Assembly (NCBI GenBank): GCA_050123235.1
Contig: JASFHL010000005.1
Span: forward strand, 30,695-94,694
Direction: 5' to 3'
Length of the DNA stretch: 64,000 nucleotides
DNA from: Candidatus Woesebacteria bacterium
GTDB taxonomy: Bacteria; Patescibacteriota; Microgenomatia; UBA1400; PJMF01
The position numbers were made by a program, and so were the translations under genes. This document shows, one piece after another, positions 7,409 to 61,777 of the stretch; position 1 is the first letter of the stretch; the number at the start of each line of letters is the position of its first letter. Below the pieces are notes generated by a model, which searched no databases, had not been told where the DNA came from, and saw only the letters and a program-made list of their open reading frames with translations.

Positions 7409-7491
7409 GTTATTTGACTTACTTATTAATATGATTGTTTATATTAAATTTATAAAAGGAATGTTGCCTTTACAAAAGTTGAAATTCTTTA

Positions 7492-39522: not shown

Positions 39523-42500
39523 ATGAAATTTTTTAAAAAACCCCTCGTTTTTATTTTTTCTTGTTTTCTTTTTCTTTTAGTTAGCTTATTAGCAAATAAA
39601 AAAATTCATTTTTTTTCTAGCTCAGTTCCTGCTTTTGCTCAAAGCACTGACTCTCAAATTTTGATTAGTGCCAAAGAAGGAGATCAAGGTTTCAAAGCTG
39701 TGATTGCTCAATCTTCTTTGGAGGAGCCAGCTGTTTGGGTTGGAGATCATAAGCTTAATGGTGAGCTTGAATTGAGAGTTTATAAAGCAACGCTTACTTC
39801 CTTACTTGAATATCTAGCCCATGACGAAGATAACAATCAAGTTAATCCTGATGTTAGAGCTTCAGAATTAGAGCAGCTGGTAACTATCAATGAGCCGATT
39901 GCTTTTGCTCAAAAAAAGATTCTTCTTCCTTTGGAAGAAACTGGAGTCTGGTATTTGGAAGCTAGATTTAAAGGAGAAACTTGGGTAGGTAAGACTTTTT
40001 TGATTCGTTCTAAAACAGGAGTTTTAGTTAAAGAAGGAAATAATGAGCTTATCTTTTGGGGTCAAGATTATGCTAGTAAAAGAAGTATCAATCAAGGAGA
40101 AGTCACAGTTTATAATTTGGAAAATTCTATTCAAACTCTTGCTCAGAGTAATTTTAATCAAGATGGCGTTGCTAAAACAGGGATTAGCACTGATGCTGAT
40201 ATAGCTATTTTTAAAAATGGTAATGACATATCCCTGACGCCGATTAATCTACGTTTCTTAGAAGGCAACTGGGGTTACAATTTTTTTACTCCCAAAGAAA
40301 GAAAAGCCAAGTTTTTCACTTTTACTGATAGACCGCTTTATAAACCAGGAGACGTGATTAAATTTAAATCAATTATTAGAGACGATGATGATGCGGTCTA
40401 TTCTATTCCCAAAGGTTTAGCTCAAGTGAAGATTTATTCAGATGATTATGACAATCCTGTTTTTGTAGACAATTTTCCTATTACTGATGAAGGCAGCATC
40501 GCTGGTGAAGTAACACTGCCGGCTGATGCAAGTACAGATTATTATTATCTAGAGGTAAACTTAGATGCAACAGAAGAAGCTGACTATTATAATTATAATT
40601 TACGTGATTATGTTTATTTTCAGGTGGAGCATTATCGAAAACCAGAATATTCAATAGACATTGAAGCAGAAGAATCAGAGTTAATAGCTGGTGATAGTTC
40701 CTCTTTTACTATCACAGGTAGTTATTTCTTTGGAGAACCAATTAGCAAGCAAACTGTGAAGTATAAAATTTATTCAGCTCCTTATTGGTCTTCTGATTAT
40801 TACGGGCAAAGAAAAATTGAATTAAGTGACAATTATCGCTATGGATATTACTGGGGTAAAGAAGTGACTAGTGGTACGGCTGTGTTTAACAGTCAGGGTG
40901 AAGCAGTGATTGATTTTGAAGCTCTACTACCTGAAATAGATGCAACAGCTTCTTCTTATACCTCAAATACGTCCAAGAAAAGCCAAATTTATGCAATTGA
41001 AGCAGAGTTTGATGACGGTTCAGGAAATTCAGTTTTTGCTAGAAAAAATATTTTAGTGCGTAATGGTGAGTTTGGCATTTTTAAGAAAAACTATCAAAGT
41101 ACTGCGCTACTTAATCAAGAAATAGATGTTCCAATCAAACTAGTAGCTTATCAAGATGATGTTCAAATAAGTAAAATTGATTTAACTGTCAAGCCTGTGC
41201 ATCAAACTTGGGTGCGTGAAGAAGTAGAAGGTCAGAAATATCCTCGTTTTCGTGAAGAAAAAAAAGAGTTAAAAGAATTTTCTATAGTTACAGATAAACA
41301 AGGTGAGGCCACTATTAAGTTCACTCCTGAAAAGCTTGGTTCTTATGTGATGACAGTAGTGGCAGAAGATTCCAGGGGCAACCAAATCTCTAAAGATTTT
41401 TATTTTTGGATTACTGATGAAAAACAAGCTGTTTTCAGTGGTCAATATGAACAACATCTTGATATCCAAATTGATAAAGAAGAATATCAATTTCAAGACA
41501 CAGTCAAGGCAATTATTTCTTCTTCTGAGCCAGATAGGGATCTTTTCTTATCATTTGAAAGAGATGGGGTGAGGCGTTTTCAAACAGTTAAACTTCATGC
41601 TCAGACAGCCACTGTTGAACTGCCTTTGCAACAGACAGATATGCCGAATATTTTTTTATCAGTAGCAAGTTTTACCAAAGGACGCTTAGATAGTAACAAT
41701 CGAGTTGTTCATGTATCCCCTGATCCTCAAAAATTAACTGTTGAAATTAAAGCTAATAAAGAACGATATGTGCCTGCAGAAACAGTGACGCTTGATATTT
41801 TTACTAAAGATTTTGCTGGTAATGCTATCCCTGCTGAGACTGCAGTTTGGGTAGTTGATAAAGCAATCTTTGAATTGACTAATCAAGGAACAGCTGATAT
41901 TTTTAATCGCTTTTGGAGTGAACGTTATTTAAATACAGCAAAGTCTCACTCTTTAGAAGGCATTTTTATGATGAATATGGGAGGTGGCGGTGGCTGTTTT
42001 ACAGGAGATACTCAGATTTCTATTGCTAACGGAAAGGACAAGGCAATCAAAGATATTAAAATTGGCGATCAAGTTTTAACAAAGAAGAATCCCAATGATA
42101 AGCCAAAAGCAACTAAAGTAACTAAAGTTTTTGAGCATCAAGTTGCTGGCTATTTCTTAGTCAATGCTTCGCTTAAAGTTACCCCAGAGCACATCATGTG
42201 GATCAATGATCGCTGGCAAACTGCCTCTCATTTAAAAATAGGCGATAAGCTTAGGGACAGTCAGAATAATGAAATAGAAGTAGTTTCACTGGAATGGCAA
42301 GATGGCTTATTTAAGGTTTTTAACTTAGAAGTAGAAAATGCTCATACTTTTTTTGCCAATGATATCTGGGTACATAATCAGAAAGGTGATGGTGGTGGTA
42401 GAAAAATTTTTGAAGATACAGCTTATTGGAATCCTTTTGTTAAAACTGACGCCAATGGTCATGCTCAAATTACTTTTAAATTGCCAGACAATTTAACTAC

Positions 42501-47310: not shown

Positions 47311-47395
47311 ATTACCAATTCCTGTTTTCTAGCAAAAGATTGACAAAACAAATCACTGTTTGTTAAACTACAAATTATTCTGATGAATAATTAAT

Positions 47396-47452
47396 ATGCA
47401 AATCAATAAATTTAAAAACAATCAGCTTCTCCTTATTCTTACTATTCCGTAA
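47396..47452 (+). CDS. leu-operon leader peptide (18 aa: MQINKFKNNQLLLILTIP)
   Basis: Short ORF with four Leu and two Ile codons clustered at codons 11-17. Its stop codon lies inside the first stem of the attenuator, 123 bp upstream of leuA. Confidence 0.7.
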   Translation: MQINKFKNNQLLLILTIP

Positions 47453-47532
47453 GGACGGAGTTGTGATTGTTAGGCAACCTCCGTCAGGAGGTTTTTTTAA
47501 TTTTAAAACCTCCAAAAAACGGGGGTTTTTTT
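47445..47532 (+). promoter_or_regulatory. transcription attenuator of the leu operon (alternative hairpins + tandem terminators)
   Basis: Segment 1 TCCGT (446-450) pairs with ACGGA (455-459). Segment 2 GACGGAG (454-460) can alternatively pair with CTCCGTC (479-485). Terminator 1 is CCTCC-GTCA-GGAGG + T7 (478-498). A second terminator-like hairpin is CCTCC-A6C-GGGGG + T7 (509-532). Confidence 0.7.
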
Positions 47533-47574
47533 ATATAGAATGCTAAAAATTAATTTTTCAAAAAAAGGAAATTT

Positions 47575-48753
47575 ATGAAAAAACAATTTAAAAAAAACAA
47601 ATTGATAATTTTCGATACTACTCTCCGTGATGGAGAACAAGTACCAGGAGCTAAATTAAACACAGAAGAAAAAGTGATTATTGCCAAGCAACTAGAAAAG
47701 CTAGGTGTAGATGTGATAGAAGCTGGTTTTCCTATCTCCAGTCCTGAAGACTTTCGATCAGTTAATGAAGTTGCTAAAAAAATAAAGCATGCTGTAGTTT
47801 GTGGATTAACTAGAGCAGTAAAGAAAGATATTGAAGTGGCAGCAGAGGCCTTGCAGACAGCAAAGTTTCCTAGAATTCATACTGGGATTGGTGCCTCTGA
47901 TGTTCACATTAAACATAAATTCAAATCAACTAGGAAAAGAGTACTTGAGCAAGCTATTAAGGCAGTCAAGTATGCCAAAAAATTTGTTGATGATGTGGAA
48001 TTTTATGCTGAGGATGCTGGTCGAGCTAATGATAAATTCTTGTCTAAGATGGTTGAGGCCGTGATTGCAGCTGGAGCTACTACTGTCAATATTCCTGATA
48101 CTACAGGTTACTGTTTCCCAGAAGAATTTGCTGCAAAAATCAATTATCTTTTTGAGAATGTCAAAGGTATTGATCAGGCTGTGATTAGTGTTCATTGCCA
48201 TAACGATTTAGGTTTAGCCACAGCTAATAGTATTGCTGCTATTCAAGCAGGAGCAAGACAAGTTGAAGTCACCATTAATGGCATTGGTGAACGGGCAGGA
48301 AATACAGCCTTAGAGGAAGTGGTGATGGCAATGGAAACACGGGCCAAACAAAACTTGGATATTGATATTCAAACTAAAGAAATATCTAAGACTTCTAGCT
48401 TGGTTTCAGAAACGATGGGTATTCCAATTCAACCTAATAAAGCAATTGTTGGAGCCAATGCTTTTGCTCATTCTTCTGGAATTCACCAAGATGGTTTGCT
48501 CAAAAAAAGACAAAATTATGAAATCATTAATCCCAAGACAGTTGGGATTAATAGTTCTAAGATTATTCTAACTGCTCGTTCTGGCAGAGCTGCCTTGAGA
48601 TTCAGATTAGCTGAGTTAGGTTTTGCAATGGAAAAAGAAGAGATCAGTAATATTTATGGAGATTTTCTCAAAATAGCTGATAGCAAAAAAGAAGTGACAA
48701 ATAAAGACTTAAAAGAACTTATTAAAACAGTTGGATTGCAAAAGGGAGCTTGA
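47575..48753 (+). CDS. leuA: 2-isopropylmalate synthase / (R)-citramalate synthase family enzyme, catalytic domain only (no C-terminal LeuA allosteric domain)
   Basis: 392 aa; DTTLRDGEQ and HCHNDLGLA(T)AN motifs of the HMGL-like/LeuA family. It ends right after the TIM-barrel and subdomain I, and is followed by leuCDB. Confidence 0.8.
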
Positions 48754-50159
48754 TTATGAAAGCAAAAACAATGTATGAAAAAATCTGGGAAAAGCATATT
48801 GTTTGCCATGATCAAGACGCCGAGCCAGTGATCTATATAGATACTCACCTTGTTCATGAAGTAACTTCACCACAAGCTTTTGATGGACTGCGCCAAAGAG
48901 GTCTGAAGCTAAGAAGACCAGATAGGACTTTTATGACTATAGATCACGTGATTTCCACTAAAGACCCAAAACGTGATTTTTTTAGCAAGAAAACAAAAAA
49001 AATGATGAAAGTTGCAGCTAGTAACGCTCAAGAGTTTTCAGTGAAATTATTTGATACTGATTCTAAAAAACAGGGTGTGATTCATATTATTGCTCCAGAA
49101 TTAGGTCTTATTCAACCAGGTATGACTATTGCTTGTGGTGACAGCCATACTGCTACTCACGGTGCTTTTGGAGCAATTGCGTTTGGTATTGGCACCAGCG
49201 AAGTTGAATGTATTTTAGCCAGTCAATGTTTATTGCAGAAAAAAATGAAAACCATGGAGATCAGAGTTGATGGCAAGCTTGGCAAGGGAGTGACTGCCAA
49301 AGATCTCATTTTAGCTATCATTAATAAACTAGGAGTAGGAGGTGGTACTGCTTATGCAGTCGAATATACAGGCGAAGCTATCAGAGCTATGTCAATGGAT
49401 GAGAGATTAACCATTTGCAACATGTCTATTGAATTTGGGGCTAAAGTAGGCATGATTGCAGCAGATGAAATAACTTTTGCTTACCTCAAAGCTAAGGAAT
49501 ATGCCCCAAAGGGGGAAGATTTTGAAAAAGCAGTTAAAGACTGGAAAAAGTTGAGAACAGATAAAGCTGCCAAATATGACAGGGTAATAAAAATATCTGC
49601 TCAGCAACTAAAACCACGAGTAACTTACGGTATTAGCCCAGATATGAATCTTGCTATTGACGAAAAGCTTCCCACTAAGCAGAGTCTTAGTAATGAGACT
49701 GATCGAGAGATGTTAGAGCAAGCTCTTGATTACATGGACTTTAAAGAAGGTGAAGCAATCCAAGGTAAAGAAATTCAGCATGTTTTCATTGGTAGCTGCA
49801 CCAACGGCAGACTTACTGATTTAGAAGCAGCAGCCAAAGTTCTCAAAGGCAAAAAAGTGGCAAAAGGGGTTACTGCGGTGCTTGTGCCTGGTTCTATGCC
49901 AATTAAAGCAAAGGCAGAAGAAAAAGGTTTGGACAAGATTTTTAAAGATGCTGGCTTTGAATGGCGTCAGCCTGGTTGCAGTAGTTGTTTAGCCATGAAT
50001 GGAGATCTTATCCCGGCTGAAGAATATTGTGTAAGTACAACTAATCGTAATTTTAAAGGACGTCAGGGTAAAGGTGCTAGAACCATTCTAGCTAGTCCTA
50101 TGATGGCGGCAGCGGCTGCTATCACTGGCAAAATTACAGACGTAAAGGAGCTATTATGA
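48750..50159 (+). CDS. leuC: 3-isopropylmalate dehydratase large subunit
   Basis: 469 aa; aconitase-family Fe-S ligand motifs ([17 protein letters not shown]); overlaps the leuA stop. Confidence 0.9.
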
Positions 50160-50743
50160 AAAAATTTACTATCATTAACTCTAGTTGCGTGCCAATCAAT
50201 TGGAAAAATATTGATACAGATCAAATTTTACCTGCCAGGTTTATGACAGGAGTTAAAAAAACTGGTTTTGCTAAGCTACTCTTCTATGATCATCGCTATG
50301 ACAAAGATGGTAAACCTAATAAAAGTTTTGTTTTAAATGATGATAGATATAAAGGACATAAAATTCTGGTAGCTGGTCATAATTTTGGCTGCGGCAGTTC
50401 CAGAGAGCATGCTCCCTGGGCAATTAGTCAATATGGCTTTAGAGTAGTGATTTCTTCAATGTTTTCTAGTATTTTTAAAAATAATGCCCTCAAAAATGCA
50501 CTGTTATTAGTTGAAGTTCCGGAGGCAGAGTTAGAGAGCATTTTTGCTGAGATTGAAAAAAATCCCAAGTTTAAAATCACAGTCAATTTACCAGACCAAA
50601 CCATTAGTTTTGCTAATAAGAAAATTAAATTTAAAATTAGTCCCTTTAGAAAACGATGTATTATCAATGGTTATGATGATGTCAACTATCTCTTTTCCAA
50701 GAAGAAAGAAATTAAGAAATATGAATTAGCAAATAAAAAATAG
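50156..50743 (+). CDS. leuD: 3-isopropylmalate dehydratase small subunit
   Basis: 195 aa; aconitase swivel domain (GHNFGCGSSREHAPWA). Confidence 0.9.
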   Translation: MKKFTIINSSCVPINWKNIDTDQILPARFMTGVKKTGFAKLLFYDHRYDKDGKPNKSFVLNDDRYKGHKILVAGHNFGCGSSREHAPWAISQYGFRVVISSMFSSIFKNNALKNALLLVEVPEAELESIFAEIEKNPKFKITVNLPDQTISFANKKIKFKISPFRKRCIINGYDDVNYLFSKKKEIKKYELANKK

Positions 50744-50756
50744 AAAGGCTTAAAAC

Positions 50757-51827
50757 ATGAAAAAATCTATTCTAGTGCTTGGTGGCGATGGGATTGGTCC
50801 TGATGTTACTAAGCAAGCTGTCAAAGTTTTGAGAAAAGTAGCCAAAAAATTCAAACATCAATTTGAGTTTAAAAAGGCATTAATAGGAGCCGTGGCTATA
50901 GATAAGACAGGCAATCCTTTACCTGAAAAAACTATTAGTTTAGCTAAAAAGTCTGATGCTATTTTGTTTGGGGCAATTGGTTCACCTAAATATGATAATA
51001 ATCCCAATGCCAAAGTTAGACCTGAGCAGGGTTTACTCGGTATTAGAAAAGCGCTAGGCCTTTTTGCCAATCTAAGACCTATCAAATTGTTTGATGAGCT
51101 GCTGGATACTTCACCACTTAAGGCTGAAGTAATCAAAGGTTCTGATATTTTGATTTTCAGAGAATTGATTGCTGGTATCTATTTTGGAGCTCGTGGTAGA
51201 ACTGAGGATCTAAACGAAGCTTTTGACACCATGATTTATTCCAAAGAATCTGTGCGCAGAATAGGGAAATTAGCTTTTGAAACAGCCAGAACTAGAAAAA
51301 AGAAAGTCTGTAGTGTAGATAAAGCTAATGTGCTTGCTAGCTCTAGGCTTTGGAGAGAGGCGATTGTAGAGTTGGCAAAAGAATATCCAGATGTGGAATT
51401 GAGTCACCTCTTTGTAGATAACGCTGCCATGCAATTGATCAAAAGACCAAGTGAATTTGATGTGATTGTGACAGGCAATATGTTTGGCGATATTCTTTCT
51501 GACGAAGCTTCACAGATTGCTGGTAGTTTAGGGATGTTGGCTTCAGCCAGTATGGGTGAAAAATATGGCCTTTATGAACCAATTCACGGAAGTGCTCCCA
51601 AGTATGCTGGTAAAAATGTGGCTAATCCCTTGGCCACTATTTTATCAGCCCAAATGATGTTAAGTTTGGCTTTTAAAATGAAAAAAGAAGCTAAAGCGGT
51701 AGAGAAAGCAATTGGTAAGGTTTTGGCAGCTGGCTATCGTTGCAAAGACATTGCTGATGCTAAAACTGAAAGAAATAAAATAGTGGGGACGGAAGAGATG
51801 GGTGATTTAGTGGCTGCAGCGATTTAG
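50757..51827 (+). CDS. leuB: 3-isopropylmalate dehydrogenase
   Basis: 356 aa; [12 protein letters not shown] signature of isocitrate/isopropylmalate dehydrogenases. Confidence 0.9.
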
Positions 51828-51929: not shown

Positions 51930-53381
51930 TTGGTATATAGATTATTCATGAAAGCTACTCAAAATGTGTTAGATATAATTTTTGTTAATCCTTTCCCAGA
52001 AAATGCTTATGGTATTAATAGTGAAACAGTAGAACCTCCCTTAGGTTTGGGTTACTTGGCCGCAGTTGCTGAAGAGAGAGATTTTTCTTGTGAGATAATT
52101 GACGCTAATATTTTGGAACTCAAGATTGCTCAAGTTCTCCGAATTATCAAGCAAAAAAAACCAAAAATTGTTGGTATTAATGTCAATCTTTATTCTTATA
52201 AAGTTGCCTTAAAATTGGCAGACAAAATAAAAAAAGCTCTTCCAAAAACAACTGTAATTTTAGGTGGTCCTACACCAACCAGTGCTCCTAGGCAAGTAAT
52301 GAAAGCTTGCAAAACTGATGCTGTCTGTATTGGGGAAGGAGAAAATACTTTAACAGAAATTTTAGATAACTATAAACAAGGCAAACATCTTTTTAGAAGT
52401 GTGGCAGGGATGATGTATCGGAGTAGCAGTGGTAAAAGGATTATGAACAACAAGCCTCGAGCGTTTATACGAAATATTGATACTATTCCCTTTCCTGCCT
52501 ATCATCTTTTTCCAGATCTTAATAAATATAAATCTAGGGCTGTTAAAAAGCCATTCGCTCCTCTTTTGACCAGCCGCGGCTGTCCTTTTCAATGTGTGTT
52601 TTGCAGCAAAGATGTATTTAAGTACGCCTGTCGCATGAGGTCCCCAGAAAACGTAATAGATGAAATTGATATGCTAGTCAAGAAATTTGGAGTAAAACAG
52701 CTAGATATCTTAGATGACAACTTTACAATCAACAAAAAAAGGACAGAGCGTATTCTTGATTTGATAATAAAACGAAAATACGATCTACATATTAATTTAC
52801 AGTCTGGAGTAAGAACAGAAGGCATCGACACCAAAATAATCAGAAAAATGAAAAAGGCAAAGATTTTTAAAATCCCCTTTGGCGTAGAATCAGGCGATCC
52901 TCTGATTCTTAAAAGAATCAAAAAACAACTCAATTTAAAAAAAGTTTTGGCTTGCACTAAAATGGCAAAAAAAGCTGGGATGAAGGTTTATGGCTTTTTT
53001 ATGATTGGTTTACCAGGTGATACTGCTGAAAGTATGCAAAAAACCATAGACTTTGCTATAAAAATGAACCCTAATATTGCAAATTTCAGTATCACCATCC
53101 CTTTTCCCGGAACAGAGCTTTATCAGACGGTAAAAAAAGAAGGTAAGTTTCTTGTTGATATGGATAATGGAATCGATGCTGGCTTTTATGCCAATAAGGT
53201 TTTTTATGAGTTAGAAGGTATGGATAAAGATGTGGTGCTTAGTTACTACCAGAAGGCAATGAAAAGCTTTTATTTCAGACCGAAAAAAATATTTGAACTC
53301 ATCATGAGTATGAATTCATGGAGTGAATTTCAGTGGTTTGCCAAAACTTCTTTTTCAGTTTTTAAAAAATTGTTTAGTTGA
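51930..53381 (+). CDS. B12-binding radical SAM domain protein
   Basis: 483 aa; N-terminal cobalamin-binding-like region, then radical-SAM Cx3Cx2C (GCPFQCVFCSK). TTG start at 51930 or in-frame ATG at 51948. Confidence 0.75.
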   Translation: MVYRLFMKATQNVLDIIFVNPFPENAYGINSETVEPPLGLGYLAAVAEERDFSCEIIDANILELKIAQVLRIIKQKKPKIVGINVNLYSYKVALKLADKIKKALPKTTVILGGPTPTSAPRQVMKACKTDAVCIGEGENTLTEILDNYKQGKHLFRSVAGMMYRSSSGKRIMNNKPRAFIRNIDTIPFPAYHLFPDLNKYKSRAVKKPFAPLLTSRGCPFQCVFCSKDVFKYACRMRSPENVIDEIDMLVKKFGVKQLDILDDNFTINKKRTERILDLIIKRKYDLHINLQSGVRTEGIDTKIIRKMKKAKIFKIPFGVESGDPLILKRIKKQLNLKKVLACTKMAKKAGMKVYGFFMIGLPGDTAESMQKTIDFAIKMNPNIANFSITIPFPGTELYQTVKKEGKFLVDMDNGIDAGFYANKVFYELEGMDKDVVLSYYQKAMKSFYFRPKKIFELIMSMNSWSEFQWFAKTSFSVFKKLFS

Positions 53382-53505
53382 TTTTTTTTAGTTGTAATAA
53401 AGAGCCGTAAGAGAAAATTTGTCTAAATAAGGAGAGTTCTGCTGCCTTTGTATTTGACAAAAGTAAAAGGTTATAGATATAATCATCGACGTATTGGATA
53501 CATAA

Positions 53506-53574
53506 ATGTTAAAAATAAATTCACAAAATCAGTTTAATAACGTTCTTGTTATTATTCTTAGCCTCTCAACGTAG
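53506..53574 (+). CDS. ilv-operon leader peptide (22 aa: MLKINSQNQFNNVLVIILSLST)
   Basis: Run of Val-Leu-Val-Ile-Ile-Leu codons. The stop TAG overlaps the first G-run of the attenuator. Its N-terminus resembles the leu leader (MQINKFKNNQ vs MLKINSQNQFNN). Confidence 0.7.
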   Translation: MLKINSQNQFNNVLVIILSLST

Positions 53575-53627
53575 GGGGATTTTGTCTTGGATTAAAAAAT
53601 CAAAGCTCCCCCAAGGGGGGCTTTTTT
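53571..53627 (+). promoter_or_regulatory. transcription attenuator of the ilv operon
   Basis: GGGGG (574-578) can pair with CCCCC (608-612) as an antiterminator. Alternatively CTCCCCC (606-612) pairs with GGGGGG (615-620) and is followed by T6 (622-627), forming a terminator, 87 bp upstream of ilvB. Confidence 0.7.
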
Positions 53628-53713
53628 AGTTTTCTTAGCTGATTATTGTTTATCGGCCAAATAAAGCTAAATAAAATAGTGAACTAGCAATAGAGTTAGA
53701 AAGAAAAACAACT

Positions 53714-55438
53714 ATGAAAAAAGAAAGAAAAAAAGCAGCACAAACTGGCAAACATATTCTATGTCAAGCTTTAAAGAAAATAAAAGCAGGCGCTATCTTT
53801 GGCTACACAGGCGGAGCAATCATGCCGCTCTATGATGAATTGGAAAAATTTCCTGAATTAAAGCACGTCATGACTAGACACGAACAAGGTGCAGCTTTTG
53901 CTGCTCAAGGTTATGCTAGGGCTACTGGTGAATTAGCCTTTGTTTTTACTACTTCAGGCCCAGGAGCTACTAATACTATTACCGGTGTAGCTGATGCGAT
54001 GATGGATAGTGTGCCTATTATGGTCATTACTGGACAGGTTGCAACTAGCGTGGTTGGCACTGATGCTTTTCAAGAAAGCGATGTGGTGGGCCTGATGTTA
54101 CCGATTACCAAACATAGCACAGTGGTCACTGATACTGATGATCTGGCTGAGACATTTTTTAAATTAACAAGTATCGCTTTAGAAGGTAGGCCAGGCCCAG
54201 TTCATTTAGATTTACCCAAAGATATTCAGCTTGGTTTTTCTAGTAACACAGATTATCAGCTTAAGCCTTATGATTTCTATTACCCTGCAGCTTCAGTTCC
54301 TAAGAAAAAATATCAACAAGCGGCCGAAATAATCAATCAAGCAAAAAAGCCCGTAGTTTTCTGCGGACATGGAGTTGTGATTTCTAAATCTCATCAAGAA
54401 TTTTTACGCTTCATAGAAAAAGGTAAATTAACTTTTGCTTCTACTAGTCACGGTCTTTCAGCTGTGCCTAGTGATCACCCTTTGCATTTGGGCATGATGG
54501 GCATGCATGGCACAGTAGCAGCCAATAAGGCAATTGAGGAGGCTGATTGTATTGTTGCTTTAGGTATGCGTTTTGATGATAGAGTGACAGGTAAATTGTC
54601 AGAATATGCTCCTGCTGCTAAAATCATTCACATTGACATTGACCAATCAGAAATTGATAAAAACGTAAGCACAGATTTGGCCATTAATTCTGACCTCAAA
54701 CCAGCTTTGCAAGCGATCACCCCAATGATTAAAAAAGTTGCACGCAAAGATTGGTTGAGCAAAATTCAAAAAAATAAAGCTAAATGGGAAAAGTACATCC
54801 AACCTTTGATCAAAAAAGGTATTGGTGATAATGGTGGTCTATTAATGAAGACTATTGTCACTAAATTATCTACTTTGACTAAAGGTAAGGATAACATCGT
54901 ATCTGACGTGGGTATTCATGAGATGATGCTAGCGCGTTTTTATAATTTCCAACGTTTTAATACTTGGTTCCATTCTGGTGGAGCTGGCACCATGGGTTTT
55001 TCTTTACCTACAGCCATTGGAGTCAAAGTAGCTAGACCAAAGGAAAGAGTTTGGGCAGTGATGGGTGATGGTGGTTTTCAGATGAATGTGCAAGAACTAG
55101 GTACTATTCTGGCAGAGCAGCTTGATATCAAAATTGTAATTCTTAACAATAGTACCCTAGGTATGGTGAGGCAATGGCAGACTCTATTTTTTAATAAGGC
55201 TTATGCTCAGACTGATATGATTAATCCTGATTTTATTAAGTTGGCAGATAGTTATAACATTCCTGGAAAAAGAGTCAGTCAAACTAAAGAGATTGGGCCA
55301 GCTATCAAATGGGCGATGAAAACCAAAGGCCCAGTGATTTTAGAATTTGTCTGTGATAAAGATGAAAAAATTTTCCCAATGGTCCCATCAGGAGCTAATT
55401 TTAGAGAAATGATTGAAACCCATCATGATGCTAATTAG
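53714..55438 (+). CDS. ilvB: acetolactate synthase large subunit
   Basis: 574 aa; ThDP-binding motif GDGGFQMN...LNN; FAD-binding middle domain. Confidence 0.9.
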   Translation: MKKERKKAAQTGKHILCQALKKIKAGAIFGYTGGAIMPLYDELEKFPELKHVMTRHEQGAAFAAQGYARATGELAFVFTTSGPGATNTITGVADAMMDSVPIMVITGQVATSVVGTDAFQESDVVGLMLPITKHSTVVTDTDDLAETFFKLTSIALEGRPGPVHLDLPKDIQLGFSSNTDYQLKPYDFYYPAASVPKKKYQQAAEIINQAKKPVVFCGHGVVISKSHQEFLRFIEKGKLTFASTSHGLSAVPSDHPLHLGMMGMHGTVAANKAIEEADCIVALGMRFDDRVTGKLSEYAPAAKIIHIDIDQSEIDKNVSTDLAINSDLKPALQAITPMIKKVARKDWLSKIQKNKAKWEKYIQPLIKKGIGDNGGLLMKTIVTKLSTLTKGKDNIVSDVGIHEMMLARFYNFQRFNTWFHSGGAGTMGFSLPTAIGVKVARPKERVWAVMGDGGFQMNVQELGTILAEQLDIKIVILNNSTLGMVRQWQTLFFNKAYAQTDMINPDFIKLADSYNIPGKRVSQTKEIGPAIKWAMKTKGPVILEFVCDKDEKIFPMVPSGANFREMIETHHDAN

Positions 55439-55505: not shown

Positions 55506-56012
55506 ATGAAAATGAAAAAAGTCAAAAATTATACCTTAATCGTTTTTGCAGAAAACAAACCTGGTGTCCTGAATAAAGTTACTATGTTGATCAGAAGAAA
55601 AATGTACAACGTAGAGACAATTACTGCCTACAAAACAGAAACGCCAGGAATCTCAAGGATTACCATTAATGTTAATGATCAAGAAAGTTCTAAGGTTGAA
55701 CAGATAGTAAGACAATTGAAAAAGATCGTGGAAGTCACTGAAGTAATCAATGTCACTAATCAAAAACCAGTAGTTAGAGAATTGGTCTTGATCAAAGTTA
55801 AAACCAACAATGGTAGTAGAGCTCAAGTTTCTCAATTGGCAAATATTTTTAGAGGCAATATAGTTGATGTTTCGCAAGATTCAATGGTGGTGGAAATCAC
55901 AGGTAATCCTCAGAAAGTTGAGTCAGCCATTTGTGTTTTTGATGATTATGAAATTTTAGAAATAGCAGGTACAGGCATCACTGCCATGGAAAGGAGCAAC
56001 GGTGAAGAGTAA
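55506..56012 (+). CDS. ilvN: acetolactate synthase small (regulatory) subunit
   Basis: 168 aa; ACT domain ([22 protein letters not shown]...A). Confidence 0.85.
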
Positions 56013-57672
56013 TTTGGTCAAAACAGGGGTTAACTGCGCTCCCCATCGCAGCCTATTTCGTGCCACAGGCGTAGTAAAAGATAAACGTGATTTTAAAAAA
56101 CCCTTTATTGCTGTGGCTAATTCCTTTGTAGAAATTATCCCTGGCCATGTTCATCTACAGGAATTGGGAAAATTAGCTAAGGCTGCTATTAGAAAAGCAG
56201 GAGGCATTCCTTTTGAATTTAATACTATTGGTATTTGTGATGGTATCGCTATGGGTCACAGTGGGATGAAGTATTCATTGCCTTCTCGGGAGCTAATTGC
56301 AGACAGTGTTGAATCAATGCTTAGGGCTCATTGTTTTGATGGGGTGCTGCTTTTAGGAAACTGTGACAAAATTGTGCCAGGCATGTTGATGGCTGCGATG
56401 AGAGTTAACATCCCAGCCATTTATGTTTCTGGCGGGCCAATGAAAGCTGGTTGCGTTAATGGGCGAGCTACTGACTTAATTACTGTTTTTGAGGCAGTGG
56501 GTGAATATGCCAAAGGGAGTATTTCAGAAAAAAAATTAACAGAATATGAAAAAAAATGTTGCCCTGGTTGTGGTTCTTGTGCAGGCATGTTTACTGCTAA
56601 TTCTATGAATTGTATTGCCGAAGCTTTAGGCATAGCATTGCCAGGAAATGGCACTAGGCTAGCTGAATCTAAAGCCAGAAAGGATTTAGTAGCTCAAGCT
56701 GCTGAACGGATTGTTTCCTTGGTTAAGAAAGATTTGAAACCTAGAGATATTGTCACTAAGCAATCAATTGATAATGCCTTTGCTTTGGATATGGCCATGG
56801 GTGGTTCTACGAACACTGTGCTTCATACTTTAGCCATCGCTCACGAAGCTGGAGTGAAATATGATTTAGACAATATTAATAAAATTTCTGCCAAAGTGCC
56901 ATGTGTTTGTAAGGTTTCTCCTTCAAGACCTGATGTGCACATGGAAGATCTTGACAGAGCTGGGGGTATATCCGCTATTTTAAAAACTATTAGTCAGAAA
57001 AAAGGAACTTTATCTTTGAAAGCAAAGACAGTCTCTGGCAAAACTTTAGGCGAAAATATCAAGACTGCCAAGGTTTTAGATGATGATGTGATTAAAAATC
57101 TTGATCAAGCTTTTTCTAATGAAGGTGGTTTGAGCATTCTCTTTGGTAATTTAGCTCCTCAGGGATCGATTGTTAAAAGTGCCGGAGTCAGTGAGCAGAT
57201 GAAGCATTTTACTGGTAAAGCTAGAGTTTTTGAGTCACAAGAAGAAGCCATGGAGGGCATTATGTCGGGTAAAGTTAAGGTAGGTGAGGTAGTGGTGATC
57301 CGTTATGAAGGTCCCAAAGGTGGCCCTGGTATGCAAGAAATGCTCTCTCCTACTGCTGCAATTGTAGGGCGAGGTTTGGGAGAAAAGGTAGCTTTGATCA
57401 CTGATGGCCGTTTTTCTGGTGGCACTCGAGGAGCTTGCGTGGGGCATGTTTCCCCAGAAGCAGCGGAGAAAGGAGCAATTGCCGCAATCAAAAATGGAGA
57501 TGAAATTGAGATAGATATAGAAAAAGGAGTTTTAGAACTAAAAGTATCTGCGGCAGAAATCAAAAAGCGTCTCAAAGCTTTACCCAAGTTCAAAGCTAGG
57601 ATCAATTATGGTTGGCTTAAAAGATACTCACAGCAGGTCAGTAATGCTAGTGAAGGCGCGGTTTTGAAATAA
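56002..57672 (+). CDS. ilvD: dihydroxy-acid dehydratase
   Basis: 556 aa; ILVD/EDD motifs ([24 protein letters not shown]). Confidence 0.92.
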
Positions 57673-57695: not shown

Positions 57696-58877
57696 ATGCG
57701 ATACCAACAACTATTTGCTAGCAGAACTAAGATAATGGGCGCTAGCGCCATCAGGGAAATCCTTAAAGTTGTTTCTCAGCCTGGTATGGTTTCATTGGCA
57801 GGAGGTATTCCTGCCCCAGAAGCCTTTCCTATGAAAATTCTGGATAAACTTTGTTCTAAGGTAATTAAAAAGTATGGTAGCCAGGCTTTTCAATATAGTG
57901 CCACTGAAGGTTTCATGCCTTTGCGTGAAGCTTTAGTCAAGTATTTAAAAAAAGAAAATATTAATACCACTTGTGAGGAAGTACTAATTTCTAGTGGCTC
58001 GCAAGGAATGCTTGACGGCTTAGGTAAAATTTTAATTTCTGAAGGTGATAAAGTAGCAGTTGAGGCACCCACCTATCTGGGAGCCTTACAAGCTTTTAAT
58101 CCATACCAACCACAATATGTCAGTATTGAAACAGATGAGCAAGGTTTCATCCCTAGCTCCTTAGAAAAAGTTTTAAAAAAGCAGAAAATTAAATTTATTT
58201 ATTTGGTACCAACTTTTCAAAACCCTACAGGTAGGACCATTCCTTTAGATAGACGAAAAGCAATTGCCAAGTTAATCATCAAGTATAAAACTTTGTTAGT
58301 AGAAGATGATCCTTATGCTGCCCTTCGTTACCGAGGCAAAAAAGTAGCTAGTATTAAATCATTGGCTCCGGATAATGTAGTTTATTTGGGGACTTTGTCT
58401 AAAGTTTTTGCTCCTGGGTTAAGAATTGGCTTTTCAGTCGCTCCCAAGCAAATCAGCCACTGGCTGACATTAGCTAAGCAAGGAGTAGATTTACATAGCA
58501 GCACTTTTAATCAAGCTCTAGCTGCTGAATATCTAAGTGCTGGCCATTTACAAAAGCAGATTCCAAAGATTCTCAAAGTTTATGAGCCTAGACAAAAAGC
58601 CATGTTAAGAGCTTTAGAAAAATATTTCCCCAAAACCTTCAAGTGGTCAAAGCCAGAAGGAGGGATGTTTATTTGGGTGGCAGGCCCAAAAGGCATGGAT
58701 ATGGAAAAAATTTATTGGCAGGCAGTTAAGAAAAAAGTGGCTTTTGTCCCAGGAAAATTTTTCTATACTGAACCCAAGCAAGGTCTAGAAACAATGCGTC
58801 TCAATTATTCAATGTCTGATGAAAAGACCATTGATCAGGCAATTAAAACTTTGTCGGAAGTAATCAAAAAAAATTAA
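57696..58877 (+). CDS. class-I (fold-type I) PLP-dependent aminotransferase
   Basis: 393 aa; SLSKVFAPGLRIG (SxSKxxxxxGxRxG PLP-lysine motif). It occupies the ilv operon where ilvE would be expected. Confidence 0.8.
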   Translation: MRYQQLFASRTKIMGASAIREILKVVSQPGMVSLAGGIPAPEAFPMKILDKLCSKVIKKYGSQAFQYSATEGFMPLREALVKYLKKENINTTCEEVLISSGSQGMLDGLGKILISEGDKVAVEAPTYLGALQAFNPYQPQYVSIETDEQGFIPSSLEKVLKKQKIKFIYLVPTFQNPTGRTIPLDRRKAIAKLIIKYKTLLVEDDPYAALRYRGKKVASIKSLAPDNVVYLGTLSKVFAPGLRIGFSVAPKQISHWLTLAKQGVDLHSSTFNQALAAEYLSAGHLQKQIPKILKVYEPRQKAMLRALEKYFPKTFKWSKPEGGMFIWVAGPKGMDMEKIYWQAVKKKVAFVPGKFFYTEPKQGLETMRLNYSMSDEKTIDQAIKTLSEVIKKN

Positions 58878-58900: not shown

Positions 58901-59953
58901 ATGGCAAAAATGAAATTTGCAAACACTCAGGAAAATGTAGTTACTAGAAAAGAATTCCCTCTTTCTAAGGCTCAAGAGGTCTTGAAAGACGAAACTGTGG
59001 CAGTGTTAGGTTATGGAGTACAAGGACCAGCCCAAGCTTTAAATATGAAAGACAACGGCATTAAGGTAATTGTTGGTCAAAGAAAAAATTCAGCTTCTTG
59101 GGATAAGGCAGTGGCTGATGGTTGGCAGGAAGGTAAGAATCTGTTTAGTCTTGAAGAAGCTGCCAAGAGAGGCAGCATTGTTCAATATCTACTCTCTGAC
59201 GCAGCTCAAGTTCAGCTGTGGCCAAAAATTAAAAAGCATTTGAGCAAAGGCAAAGCTTTGTATTTTTCTCATGGTTTTGCTTATGTTTATAAAAACCAAA
59301 CCAAAATAGTACCGCCCAAAAATGTTGATGTGATTTTAGTTGCTCCCAAAGGAGCTGGTCGCAGTGTGCGGGAGAATTTTCTCAAAGGATCTGGTATCAA
59401 TGCTAGTTATGCTGTGGCACAAGATTATACAGGCAAAGCAGAGGAACGAACTTTAGCACTAGGAATTGCCATTGGGGCAGGTTACCTTTTTGAAACTAGT
59501 TTCAAAAATGAAGTTTATAGTGACTTAACTGGTGAGAGAGGAGTTTTACTGGGAGCGATTGCTGGTTTAATGGAAGCACAATTTAAAGTATTGCGTAAAC
59601 ATGGACATAGTCCTTCTGAAGCTTTTAACGAAACTGTGGAGGAGTTTACCCAGAGCTTGATTCCTTTGACTGCTCAAAATGGTGCAGATTGGATGATTGC
59701 CAATTGTAGCAGCACCGCTCAAAGAGGGGCTTTAGATTGGATGGACAAATTTAGAGATAATAACATGGCTCTTTTTGAAAAATTATATAAATCTGTGGAA
59801 TCTGGCAAAGAGACTAAGAGAACTTTAGATAAAAACAGCGACCCAAATTATAGAAAGAATTTAGACAAAGAACTTAAACAACTACGTAATCGAGAAATTT
59901 GGCAAACTGGTAAGACAGTTAGAAAGCTTAGACCAGAAAATTGGAAGGAATAA
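58901..59953 (+). CDS. ilvC: ketol-acid reductoisomerase
   Basis: 350 aa; Rossmann GYGVQGPAQALN; conserved KARI C-terminal knotted domain. Confidence 0.92.
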   Translation: MAKMKFANTQENVVTRKEFPLSKAQEVLKDETVAVLGYGVQGPAQALNMKDNGIKVIVGQRKNSASWDKAVADGWQEGKNLFSLEEAAKRGSIVQYLLSDAAQVQLWPKIKKHLSKGKALYFSHGFAYVYKNQTKIVPPKNVDVILVAPKGAGRSVRENFLKGSGINASYAVAQDYTGKAEERTLALGIAIGAGYLFETSFKNEVYSDLTGERGVLLGAIAGLMEAQFKVLRKHGHSPSEAFNETVEEFTQSLIPLTAQNGADWMIANCSSTAQRGALDWMDKFRDNNMALFEKLYKSVESGKETKRTLDKNSDPNYRKNLDKELKQLRNREIWQTGKTVRKLRPENWKE

Positions 59954-59956
59954 AAC

Positions 59957-61777
59957 ATGAAGGATTATCAACTTATCTCTGTTAAAACTAAAAAAGTAGT
60001 CAAAGAAACTGATAGCGTGACTACTGATCCTAAAACCGGTAGCCCGCTGGAAGTAGCTTATGACTATAGCAAAATTAAAAAACTTTTTAATTCTTATATT
60101 TACAAAAATGCTCCAATTAGTGCTAGCAAGTATTTGGATCTTTATCCAATCCATGACTATAACAACATTGTTTCTTTGCAAGAAGGAGCCACTCCTTTGT
60201 ATGAGAGCCAAAAACTACGCCAAGAGTTTGGCTTGAGCAAATTATATTTTAAATATGAAGGAGCTAATCCTACTGGTTCATTTAAAGATCGTGGCAGTAT
60301 GGTAGAAGTTACTAAGGCTATTGAACTTGGAGCTAAGGGCGTAACTCTTGCTTCCACTGGGAATATGGCCGCTTCTGTAGCTGCTTATACTGCTAAGGCA
60401 GGTATTGATTGCTATATTTTTGTGCCAGAAGGCACTCCAGCAGGAAAATTAGCTCAAGCTTTATCTTGTGGTGCCAAAGTGATTCAAGTCCGAGCTGATT
60501 ACAGTACAGCTGCCAAACTAGCTGAAAAGGTCGCCAAAAAATATGGTTTTTACTTAGCAGGAGATTATTGCTTTAGACAAGAAGGTCAGAAATCTATTGC
60601 CTATGAAATCATAGAACAACGTCTATTCAAAGTTCCAGATTATATTTTAGTCCCAGTGGGTGTGGGCACTAATATGGCAGCCATTTGGAAAGGATTTAAA
60701 GAATACTATAAATTAGGCTTGATTGATGAACTTCCCCAGATGATTGCTGTTCAAGCAGAAGGTGCTTCCCCAATTATTAAGTCTTTTAATTTGAATCTTA
60801 GAAAATATGCCGTAGTAGACAAGGTAGAAACAGTTTCATCAGCCATTGCGGTAGGAAATCCATTGGATGCTGTTAAAGTAATGAAGCTACTCAAAGAATC
60901 CAAAGGCTTTGCTGTAGCTGTTAGTGATGAAGATACTTTAGAATACCAACATCAACTAGCCAAACAGGAATCAATTTTTGTAGAACCATCTAGCGCTACT
61001 ACTCTAGCAGCCTTAGCAAAATTAAAAAAACTTAAAAAGCTAAAAAAAGATGCTAGCTATATTTGTGTTCTCACCGGAGCAGGTTTGAAAGACCCAGCTG
61101 CTGCTTTAAAAATTCTAGCAGAACCACCCACCATAGAGCCTGATCTCAAAGAAGTTGATAAGATTTTATCTTCTAATATTTTGGATGTGCGCTCATATGG
61201 TGCTAAAAAAAGAGAAGAGATTGTTTTCAAGAAACTGCCAACTAGCTCTCAACTAAAGAAGTTTACCAAAGAAAAATTTGATCTTTCTTTGAGTAAAGAC
61301 TATTTTGAAGAAGTTTATAGACAGGTAAAAAATTTCTTTAAAAAAGGTAAAAAGATTAATCGCGCTGATCTGCAGTACATTATAGAAAATACCATTCAAA
61401 CTTATATCCCAGATGAAAAGAAAGTGCTTAAAGTTCTTGATTTTGAAATTACCACTAAGTATGCTCAACCACCTTTAGCAAAAATGACTGTAGAGGTAAA
61501 AAAGAAAAAAATACAAACCAAAGCCAAAGGAGTAGGTCCAGTGGATGCTGCTATTAATGCTTTACTTAAAGCCTGTCAAGAAAATGGTAAAAAGAAAGTT
61601 AAACTAACCGATTACAAGGTAGAAATTAACACTACTGGTACTGATGCAGCAGTGGATGTAGAAATGAAATTAGAAGATTCTAACAATCAAGTGGTAGGAC
61701 AGGGCACTTCACCTGATATTATCCAAGCATCGATTGCAGCCTTTGTGAGTGGTTATAATATGCTTTATTTGAAGTAG
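59957..61777 (+). CDS. threonine-synthase-like fold-type-II PLP enzyme fused to a C-terminal LeuA-type allosteric (LeuA_dimer-like) domain
   Basis: 606 aa; PLP-lysine motif ANPTGSFKDRGS (ThrC-type P-[ST]-x-[SA]-F-K-D). The C-terminal ~130 aa (GVGPVDAAINAL...LTDYKVEINTTGTDAAVDVEMKL....QGTSPDIIQASIAAFVSGYNML) match the conserved pattern of the LeuA/CimA C-terminal regulatory domain. Confidence 0.65.
   Translation: MKDYQLISVKTKKVVKETDSVTTDPKTGSPLEVAYDYSKIKKLFNSYIYKNAPISASKYLDLYPIHDYNNIVSLQEGATPLYESQKLRQEFGLSKLYFKYEGANPTGSFKDRGSMVEVTKAIELGAKGVTLASTGNMAASVAAYTAKAGIDCYIFVPEGTPAGKLAQALSCGAKVIQVRADYSTAAKLAEKVAKKYGFYLAGDYCFRQEGQKSIAYEIIEQRLFKVPDYILVPVGVGTNMAAIWKGFKEYYKLGLIDELPQMIAVQAEGASPIIKSFNLNLRKYAVVDKVETVSSAIAVGNPLDAVKVMKLLKESKGFAVAVSDEDTLEYQHQLAKQESIFVEPSSATTLAALAKLKKLKKLKKDASYICVLTGAGLKDPAAALKILAEPPTIEPDLKEVDKILSSNILDVRSYGAKKREEIVFKKLPTSSQLKKFTKEKFDLSLSKDYFEEVYRQVKNFFKKGKKINRADLQYIIENTIQTYIPDEKKVLKVLDFEITTKYAQPPLAKMTVEVKKKKIQTKAKGVGPVDAAINALLKACQENGKKKVKLTDYKVEINTTGTDAAVDVEMKLEDSNNQVVGQGTSPDIIQASIAAFVSGYNMLYLK

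Follow-up and report, generated by a model that had tools for sequence, protein, structure and literature searches.

A promoter, a leader ORF, and a terminator lie upstream of ilvB

This study concerns the region upstream of ilvB in a 64,000-nt stretch of DNA from a Candidatus Woesebacteria contig (assembly GCA_050123235.1, contig JASFHL010000005.1, forward-strand positions 30,695 to 94,694), which was analyzed at its full length and is referred to below as the window. In the interval before ilvB, the window holds a promoter, a 22-codon open reading frame (ORF) rich in Ile, Leu, and Val (ILV) codons, and an intrinsic terminator whose 5' arm can instead pair with a segment that begins at the stop codon of the ORF (Table 1). 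We argue that this leader probably acts as an attenuator of the branched-chain amino acid (BCAA) genes that follow it. An earlier note on this DNA had proposed an Ile/Val/Leu leader peptide and an attenuator upstream of ilvB, and this proposal is strongly supported by the anatomy of the locus together with 11 further orthologous leaders.

Table 1. Coordinates of the regulatory elements and genes discussed in the text (numbered from the first letter of the window)
Feature	Position	Strand	Basis or details
ilv unit promoter (sigma-70 type)	-35 TTGACA 53454-53459, 18-nt spacer, -10 TATAAT 53478-53483	+	Consensus scan
ilvL-like leader peptide ORF (MLKINSQNQFNNVLVIILSLST)	53506-53574	+	ATG 53506, 22 sense codons, TAG 53572-53574
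Regulatory codon run V13 L14 V15 I16 I17 L18 S19 L20	53542-53565	+	GTT CTT GTT ATT ATT CTT agc CTC
Segment 1, CCTCT (codons 19-21)	53562-53566	+	Pairs with AGGGG 53573-53577 (1:2 hairpin)
Segment 2, GGGGGATTTTG (antiterminator 5' strand)	53574-53584	+	Its first base is the G of the TAG stop
Segment 3, CAAAGCTCCCCC	53601-53612	+	Common to antiterminator (with segment 2) and terminator (with segment 4)
Intrinsic terminator	53602-53627	+	10-bp stem 53602-53611/53615-53624, loop CAA, T6 53622-53627
ilvB	53714-55438	+	Pfam/NCBIfam
ilvN	55506-56012	+	Pfam/NCBIfam
ilvD	56002-57672	+	Pfam/NCBIfam
Class-I aminotransferase	57696-58877	+	Pfam/NCBIfam
ilvC	58901-59953	+	Pfam/NCBIfam
ThrC-like protein fused to LeuA C-terminal region	59957-61777	+	Pfam/NCBIfam
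Promoter of the leu unit, TTGACA-18-TAAACT, TG before -10	47340-47369	+	Consensus scan
leu leader peptide ORF (MQINKFKNNQLLLILTIP)	47396-47452	+	Final 8 codons include 4 Leu and 2 Ile
leu regulatory run	47426-47446	+	Codon count
leu attenuator terminators	47476-47536	+	Hairpin 47476-47493 and T7; second hairpin 47505-47529 and T7
leuA (392 aa)	47575-48753	+	Pfam/NCBIfam
leuC	48750-50159	+	Pfam/NCBIfam
leuD	50156-50743	+	Pfam/NCBIfam
leuB	50757-51827	+	Pfam/NCBIfam

The promoter, which is an addition to the earlier note, matches the consensus at 12 of 12 positions and is both the sole such match and the best match in the 19 kb scanned. The leader ORF starts 22 nt after the -10 box and ends 139 nt before ilvB. 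Seven of the eight codons in its regulatory run specify Val (two), Leu (three), or Ile (two), and the G of the TAG stop codon is the first base of a G5 run (53574-53578), beyond which lie C5 (53608-53612), G6 (53615-53620), and the T6 tract. The 22-codon ORF, the overlap of its stop codon with G5, and the C5, G6, and T6 runs are all found at the coordinates that the earlier note had given for them.

Two exclusive pairings compete for segment 3. The terminator stem contains six GC pairs closed by a loop of 3 nt, has a folding energy of -14.9 kcal/mol, and lies 86 nt upstream of ilvB. The antiterminator pairs 53574-53579 with 53607-53612 and 53580-53584 with 53601-53605, leaving C53606 bulged, which gives 11 bp with one bulge and -15.1 kcal/mol. 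Shuffled controls reach only -7.1 +/- 2.7 kcal/mol, and none of 300 shuffles was as good. The opposition of a G5:C5 antiterminator to a C5:G6 terminator followed by T6, as the earlier note had drawn it, agrees with the anatomy, with the energies, and with the 12 orthologous loci described below. RNA folding, which that note had suggested as a check, gave a consistent result: the 151-nt leader region folds with z = -2.8 relative to dinucleotide shuffles, and its minimum-energy fold displays both the 1:2 hairpin (CCTCT/AGGGG) and the terminator.

The combination of elements is rare by chance. We scanned the whole window, on both strands, for ORFs of 10 to 40 codons with at least 6 of 8 consecutive codons for Ile, Leu, or Val and a strong terminator 10 to 70 nt past the stop codon. 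Exactly two matches were found in the 64 kb, namely the leaders 5' of leuA and of ilvB, compared with a mean of 0.05 matches in 20 locally shuffled windows.

The leader arrangement is conserved in 12 loci

Relatives were collected through scans of reference genomes and metagenomes and through look-ups of the closest IlvB proteins. In the reference genomes, the closest IlvB is that of a Candidatus Dojkabacteria metagenome-assembled genome (MAG) at 64%, followed by those of Desulfuromonadales (52-54%) and of a Candidatus Wirthbacteria MAG (54%). The window and 11 other contigs of the candidate phyla radiation (CPR) type, whose IlvB proteins are 54-73% identical to that of the window, make up 12 distinct loci with the same arrangement (Table 2; loci are designated by L numbers). 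All 12 have an in-frame ORF of 16 to 22 codons with at least 6 of 8 ILV codons, followed by a hairpin terminator with a T-tract; counted over the 13 related loci, the in-frame leader ORF is present in 12. A promoter of the TTGACA or TTGCAT type, read by eye, stands at the matching place in the orthologues.

Table 2. Leader peptides encoded upstream of ilvB in the 12 loci
Locus	Leader peptide
Window	MLKINSQNQFNNVLVIILSLST
L161 (= L081)	MLQNQTIISLIIINLTL
L162	MNNLSLNQLICILIISP
L163	MQKILTKITGIVVVILLIP
L164	MKISMTSLVSVLLIVL
L001	MQKTLITTISIIVVVLLIP
L166	MMKKIQENNIIIVLLINQ
L165	MTTMKFELLSVLLIRTD
L082	MNQRSLIVNIIINIRI
L168	MSTMMKNLNTINILVVNVAFLR
L169	MTRKALVLVLVETPTF
L011	MKKQLALVLSLIINTPTGV

The position of the RNA segments relative to the ORF is also maintained. 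Segment 1 falls within the last 2-4 codons across the loci, and segment 2 starts, in all 12, no more than 9 nt ahead of the final base of the stop codon and no more than 7 nt beyond it. The G-run begins within about 7 nt after the stop codon in 11 of the 12 loci and inside the last codons in the remaining one (L011). In the consensus of the CPR family, GGGAGATTTTGT directly follows the stop codon and AATCTCCC-GAAA-GGGAGATTTTTT comes next, so that segment 2 is a near copy of the 3' arm of the terminator.

Within the leader peptide, only the ILV run is conserved. Lengths differ, and the N-termini vary among orthologues (MLQNQT, MNNLSLNQ, MQKILTK, MKISMTS, MNQRS, and others), as expected where the translation of a peptide matters and not its product. 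The genes upstream of the leader differ from locus to locus as well (a radical SAM gene, leuB, an M23 peptidase gene, or genes on the opposite strand), and in L166 the upstream leuB carries a separate terminator of its own. Therefore, the unit of ORF and terminator belongs to ilvB rather than to its upstream neighbors.

In six of the orthologues (L001 1090-1130, L011 7795-7832, L162 7240-7266, L164, L165, and L166), the leader ATG lies only 6-12 nt past the -10 hexamer, and the leader mRNA there seems to be leaderless or nearly so. The corresponding distance in the window, 22 nt, is longer than in these orthologues (by eye).

Antiterminator and terminator partners change together

We folded each of the 12 leaders with a ribosome placed in the middle of the ILV run, restricting the fold to RNA transcribed ahead of the terminator's 3' arm. 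The helix between segments 2 and 3 forms in 12 of 12 loci, at -11 to -18 kcal/mol, and is better than its shuffled controls in 274-300 of 300 trials per locus. The conservation in relatives to which the earlier note had tied its proposal is thus seen for both structures, the 2:3 helix and the terminator, in every one of the 12 loci.

To examine whether partners match each other within a locus, we compared register-free duplex energies between own and foreign partner segments, with 20,000 permutations. For the 2:3 pairing, own partners average -14.5 kcal/mol and foreign partners -11.7 kcal/mol (1 of 20,000 permutations as good), and for the 3:4 pairing the averages are -14.3 and -10.0 kcal/mol (0 of 20,000), all of these energies being uncorrected for lineage-specific composition. 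Two loci illustrate the effect: segments 2, 3, and 4 are altered together in L161 (GAGGGATTT / AAATCCCGC / GCGGGATTT) and likewise in L168 (GAAGGTTT / AAGCCTTCC / GGAAGGCTT).

Column-wise analysis was less informative. MAFFT alignment followed by RNAalifold recovered just five terminator pairs, because the stems are out of register in the MAFFT alignment, and realignment with covariance model R1 left them out of register. Pairing extends to 81.5% of cells in the model-based alignment (A3), but a slide of -1 still gives 78.8%, since runs of G and of C shift in register; G-C pairs without any variation make up the majority. Three pairs change on both sides, and the shuffle control yields 17-19 of 500. 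The anchored and register-free energy tests were used in place of column-wise covariation. Altogether, the analysis shows sequence elements that are specific and thermodynamically plausible, and that are conserved and co-vary among the 12 orthologous loci.

The ilvB leader probably acts as a multivalent attenuator

We propose that the leader is a ribosome-mediated multivalent attenuator for ilvB-ilvN-ilvD-aminotransferase-ilvC-(ThrC-like), a reading to which we give a probability of roughly 0.88. Five features of this class of attenuator are found at the locus, namely a leader ORF, a cluster of cognate codons, a terminator, an antiterminator that excludes it, and a geometry in which, with an E. 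coli-type footprint, ribosome position could decide between the two. On this reading, the supply of charged tRNA-Val, tRNA-Leu, and tRNA-Ile would set the expression of the ilv genes. Since the codon run combines two Val, three Leu, and two Ile codons, multivalent control would be expected, as in E. coli ilvGMEDA.

The proposed sequence of events runs as follows. Transcription would start about 7 nt past the -10 box, near 53490, and a ribosome would translate the 22-codon leader with RNA polymerase still on the leader. With an ample supply of Ile, Leu, and Val, the ribosome would reach the TAG codon, and its leading edge, some 12-14 nt beyond the A site, would mask segment 2; given the position of segment 2 relative to the stop codon, a terminating ribosome would cover it. 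Segments 3 and 4 would then pair, the terminator hairpin (53602-53624) with T6 would form, and transcription would stop near 53627. When any one of the three amino acids is scarce, the ribosome would stall within V13-L20 and mask segment 1, leaving the G-run free. Segment 2 would then pair with segment 3 before segment 4 is transcribed, so that the terminator is blocked and the polymerase reads into ilvB. With no translation at all, both the 1:2 and the 3:4 hairpins would form, and termination would result. The footprint geometry used here is taken from established E. coli attenuators; together with the transcription start, the termination, and the amino acid response, it is what we infer from the arrangement of the elements.

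The Leu codons of the leaders are biased. In the two regulatory runs of the window (ilv and leu), 7 of 7 Leu codons are CTT or CTC (CTY), a type that accounts for 23% of Leu codons in the window genes, and the Leu codons used most often, TTA and TTG, are avoided. Over the 12 ilv leaders, 22 of 37 Leu codons are CTY. This bias may indicate that one tRNA-Leu isoacceptor is sensed or, alternatively, that a C-rich segment 1 is required.

Several observations weigh against the attenuator. The Shine-Dalgarno sequence of the window leader is poor, with only GGA at -12 to -10, and its 1:2 hairpin is weak (5 bp, G-U included). The mechanism presupposes transcription-translation coupling in CPR bacteria, which is an assumption. 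One related locus, L167 (IlvB 56% identical), has no recognisable leader and is the sole such case, and no leader was found at the GC-rich Desulfuromonadales-type loci that carry the nearest non-CPR IlvB. The lack of a composition correction in the own-versus-foreign energies and the near-equivalence of the slid A3 alignment, both described above, belong here too. Terminators present at the Desulfuromonadales-type loci belong to upstream genes.

Other explanations of the hairpin and the ORF

The hairpin could, in principle, simply end transcription of the upstream leu/radical SAM unit, with the ORF present by chance and ilvB expressed either constitutively, from a promoter located further downstream, or by read-through. 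Our consensus scan found no terminator between the stop codon of the radical SAM gene (53381) and the ilv promoter, so that upstream transcripts would indeed meet this hairpin, and short ORFs are plentiful in AT-rich DNA. However, a perfect promoter separates the upstream gene from the leader ORF, and the ORF and terminator are kept upstream of ilvB in 12 loci in which the upstream genes differ or face away. ILV enrichment, the distance from stop codon to G-run, and 2:3 complementarity are conserved too, against a chance expectation of 0.05 per window. The comparative data already largely refute this explanation, and we regard it as very improbable. Coding of a functional small hydrophobic membrane peptide, with the hairpin as a partial terminator or a stabilizer, appears just as improbable. 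The C-terminal half of the leader peptide is hydrophobic, and L082 (7396-7546) likewise has a small hydrophobic ORF with a terminator behind it, but the hydrophobic run of 8-10 residues is too short for a membrane span, and neither length nor sequence is conserved beyond the ILV run. In addition, F, M, W, and A are absent from the hydrophobic residues, nearly all of which are I, L, or V, in keeping with the products of the pathway, and a peptide function would not account for the constant placement of the G-run relative to the stop codon.

Control of the terminator by a T-box, a ppGpp riboswitch, or an RNA-binding protein, with the ORF irrelevant, is only marginally less improbable than these two. 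Expression platforms of riboswitches also use a terminator/antiterminator pair, and a ppGpp riboswitch governs ilvB in some bacteria (PMC10272879); such control is known from some Firmicutes. Against this, neither T-box nor ppGpp/ykkC families appear even at E<=10 in the Rfam scan of 53380-53720, and only about 115 nt lie between the putative transcription start and the terminator, 69 of them taken up by the ORF. The pattern of conservation is that of a coding sequence (in-frame start and stop, ILV run, free N-termini), unlike that of a structured aptamer.

The ORF in L082 lies just upstream of the promoter of the ilv leader in that locus. Its region (7440-7546) was also matched by covariance model R1 (34 bits) and was set aside as a false positive, consisting of a small hydrophobic ORF and a terminator. 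Further on in the same locus, at 7605-7732, a mini-ORF (MRVILINTYISQE, ending in a stop codon) is found with a strong terminator behind it.

The leu leader is the same kind of device, and its common descent with the ilv leader is doubtful

The second match of the signature scan, the leu leader, has a segment 2 (GGACGGAGTTG, about 47454-47464) that can pair with 47476-47485 to give an antiterminator of -13.4 kcal/mol. The orthologous leu leader in L162 (MKFKLIVLSLNLLNFQ) has one terminator only. The earlier note had described the ilv leader as a paralogue of the leu leader and had taken their likeness to suggest duplication and retuning of a cassette; the retuning would have concerned the codon run (Leu/Ile in leu; Val/Leu/Ile in ilv). 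This idea concerns origin and not mechanism, and it is compatible with the attenuator proposed above; on balance, we consider it unlikely.

The two leaders resemble each other in several ways. They share a layout, with the stop codon in or beside a 1:2 hairpin and a CTCC-type segment 3, and both runs use solely CTY Leu codons. Aligned from codon run to T-tract, they show 56 of 71 identities, and plain shuffles give z = 6.9 for this alignment. Leaving aside self matches, the top-scoring place in the window for the ilv covariance model is the leu leader (25.7 bits, E ~0.02), the leu leader of L162 scores 19.9 bits with the same model, and some leu-ilv cross comparisons hold z = 2.4-2.7 even under a layout-preserving null, in which codons, spacer bases, and stem pairs are shuffled within their own blocks. 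For local alignment of the whole regions at the DNA level, 90 of 1,000 shuffles were as good, for the ORF DNA 39 of 1,000, and for the whole peptides p = 0.013.

This likeness falls short of showing common descent. We rejected plain-shuffle z-scores as evidence of paralogy because they reward a layout that every attenuator of the class has. When the null preserved the layout, the two window leaders reached only z = 0.7 and 1.6 (267 and 74 of 1,000), compared with z = 3.0-4.6 for orthologue pairs. Thus, of the leader alignment that the earlier note had suggested, the RNA likeness (56/71) stands, but its excess over chance is gone once layout is preserved. A coding region for a hydrophobic anchor scores 21.7 bits with the ilv covariance model, and therefore a score of about 25 bits is not specific. 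The resemblance of N-termini on which the note had relied (MQINKFKNNQ versus MLKINSQNQFNN) is at chance level (p = 0.51, composition-preserving shuffles): the shared residues are encoded by K/N/Q codons, which are favored in AT-rich DNA, and N-termini are not conserved, or even recognizable, between orthologues. The two-leader state predates the split of the window and L162; since L162 has both leaders, any duplication would be older than the divergences that erased the N-termini. Duplication and retuning are thus unsupported as argued, with common ancestry neither shown nor excluded. We conclude that the leu and ilv leaders are the same kind of device, that a shared design is enough for their resemblance, and that common descent is unproven.

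The false positive in question is a window match at 44521, which falls in the hydrophobic C-terminal anchor of a 1,715-aa protein; its ORF (39523-44670) ends in the anchor LILLILIILLSLSLIGFLIL followed by a basic tail. At the leu locus, an alternative fold can join the two tandem hairpins (CCTCCGTC to ACGGGGG and GGAGGTTTT to AAAACCTCC; -23.9 kcal/mol). A second mini-ORF (47540-47578) follows the leu terminators, and its TGA overlaps the ATG of leuA (ATGA). The beginning of the ilv leader is similar to the first five codons of this mini-ORF together with the preceding 9 nt (TATATAGAATGCTAAAAATTAATT for the mini-ORF region, TACATAAATGTTAAAAATAAATT for the ilv leader); this is the best local DNA match of both regions and is not significant alone (90 of 1,000 shuffles). 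In L011, the gap between ilvN and leuA holds no leu leader and has a cupin-like ORF instead.

Relation to known attenuators

At gathering thresholds, Rfam finds one tRNA only in the whole window. Permissive scans of both leader regions gave sub-threshold matches that are driven by the terminators: for the ilv leader, RF01859 (Phe_leader) at 34.4 bits against a gathering threshold of 55 and RF01743 (leu/phe leader of Lactococcus) at 17.1 against 70, and for the leu leader, RF00514 (His_leader) at 18.7 against 49. RF01859 also matches the opposite strand with 28 bits, and its match is therefore hairpin-driven. These three families belong to the same mechanistic class as the ilv leader, and terminator and layout account for the weak matches.

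A close parallel is the leader of E. coli ilvGMEDA (ilvL), which has 32 codons and brings about multivalent attenuation by Ile, Leu, and Val (reviewed in works cited by PMC10272879). Both leaders have mixed Val, Leu, and Ile codons, exclusive 1:2, 2:3, and 3:4 hairpins, and an intrinsic terminator, and in both, shortage of any one amino acid would relieve termination. They differ in that there is no sequence similarity, the leader here has 22 codons and a simpler RNA of about 120 nt, and its operon begins with ilvB/ilvN instead of ilvG/ilvM; it comes from a CPR bacterium as opposed to a gammaproteobacterium, and it is known from sequence.

Attenuation of ilvB by an upstream ORF (uORF) is established in E. 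coli and C. glutamicum, and leader-peptide attenuation has been proposed for the Corynebacterium ilvB-II, the ilvB-OMG, and the Leptospira ilvB motifs (PMC10272879). Like E. coli ivbL (32 codons) and Corynebacterium ilvBNC/ilvB-II (15-17 codons), the leader described here combines ilvB, a BCAA-rich uORF, and a terminator/antiterminator pair (PMC10272879). Unlike the window leader, that of E. coli ivbL is limited to codons for Val and Leu, and the GC-rich Corynebacterium motif is confined to its genus and shares no sequence relationship with the CPR family, which has its own consensus. The short spacing between -10 and ATG in several CPR orthologues recalls the translation of the C. glutamicum leader peptide, which proceeds without a ribosome-binding site (Morbach et al. 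2000, as cited in PMC10272879).

The ilvB-OMG motif of the Breaker laboratory has been reinterpreted as a uORF attenuator (PMC10272879). It resembles the present leader in lying upstream of ilvB, in having a short in-frame ORF rich in BCAA (and Thr) codons, and in occurring in several phyla. As its published alignment appears, however, ilvB-OMG consists of GC-rich RefSeq sequences of about 210 nt, compared with about 100-125 nt of AT-rich sequence here, and by this appearance the ilv leader looks unlike that motif and is probably not a member of it. No ilvB family is listed in the Rfam scan of the leader at E<=10, membership of ilvB-OMG in that library being unconfirmed. Well outside Proteobacteria, BCAA leader-peptide attenuation is described for S. 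aureus, where a leucine-rich attenuator peptide of ilv-leu is combined with CodY (PMC5794164), and for actinobacterial leu/ilv leaders (PMC1262725); these belong to other phyla and have other sequences. Unlike the S. aureus case, the ilv unit of the window has no evident regulator gene adjoining it. Full-text searches found no literature linking CPR or Patescibacteria with leader-peptide attenuation.

Implications for CPR bacteria

We think it somewhat probable that the 12 leaders form a previously undescribed, lineage-specific family of ilvB leader-peptide attenuators, shared by CPR bacteria of the Microgenomates/Woesebacteria, Dojkabacteria, and Wirthbacteria types. What appears to be new is the sequence family and the lineage; the mechanism is thoroughly known from textbooks, and the understanding of attenuation is unchanged. 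The 12-member alignment and its consensus could seed a family of the Rfam type and would add to the picture in which uORF attenuation is the commonest form of ilvB control across phyla (PMC10272879).

The finding supplies a well-supported regulatory annotation for the genome of an uncultured CPR bacterium, a group in which almost nothing is known of gene regulation and which is usually described as lacking amino acid biosynthesis. If it holds, it would be a first indication that ultra-small, supposedly auxotrophic bacteria make their own BCAAs and regulate the pathway by a mechanism that needs tight transcription-translation coupling. It would imply, as a hint only, coupling close enough for the position of a ribosome to control RNA polymerase. 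A survey reports BCAA pathways in some CPR bacteria (PMC9166423).

The contig itself bears on this point. Its GC content is uniform (31-39%), and in its ribosomal protein cluster the gene for S5 (15682-16404) is followed after 3 nt by that for L15 (16408-16848), with no L30 between them. Absence of L30 is reportedly a hallmark of the CPR (Brown et al. 2015), and the S5-L15 arrangement is consistent with such an origin. Given the uniform GC content and the L30-less ribosomal operon on the same contig, the leu/ilv genes are therefore native to it. Together with the attenuator, the presence of a full leu/ilv set on a contig with a ribosomal operon argues for native, regulated BCAA biosynthesis and not for a binning artefact.

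ILV-rich leaders in other phyla and genes around the ilv cluster

Unrelated ILV-rich leader ORFs, followed by terminators, precede ilvB at the GC-rich loci L037, L041, L042, L106 (Acidobacteriota), L043 (Polyangiales, Myxococcota), L104, and L105 (for example, ...RIIGVIIVGIIIIAPTG and ...LAVVVLVDVLVVVVTPGCGAG); the design of ILV leader plus terminator thus recurs in many phyla. In Chloroflexota (Anaerolineae type), a strong promoter, an ILV-rich leader (e.g., MQTINFFFLVSILILVLVIIESQFTLGKAK, ending in a stop codon), and a terminator are found in L035 (5905-6220), L036 (5987-6100), and L039 (2525-2830). After this first leader and terminator come a second ILV-rich mini-ORF, a gene of 567 aa, and ilvB. 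The Chloroflexota leaders score 28-33 bits with the CPR covariance model. The most adventurous extension of the present work would derive the leu and ilv attenuators, and perhaps these tandem ILV leaders, from one ancestral cassette.

A gene for a B12-binding radical SAM protein (51930-53381) sits between leuB and the ilv leader. The models that match it best, of the HpnJ, BchE, and methyltransferase types, stay well under their cut-offs. In relatives, its position is taken by an unrelated gene of 355 aa without a Pfam match (L162) or by nothing (L166).

The gene order of the ilv cluster recurs in L161 and L163. The cluster ends with the ThrC/LeuA fusion, which is kept in two relatives at 66-73% identity (L161 7837-9630; L082 10266-10895). 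Its product of 606 aa has a threonine-synthase-like PLP domain at residues 14-382, and residues 407-604 match the C-terminal part of 2-isopropylmalate synthase (model positions 314-502). The LeuA of the window is short and lacks the C-terminal part found in the fusion. Because no ilvA gene is evident, the fusion could be an enzyme under feedback regulation that supplies 2-oxobutyrate to the Ile pathway.

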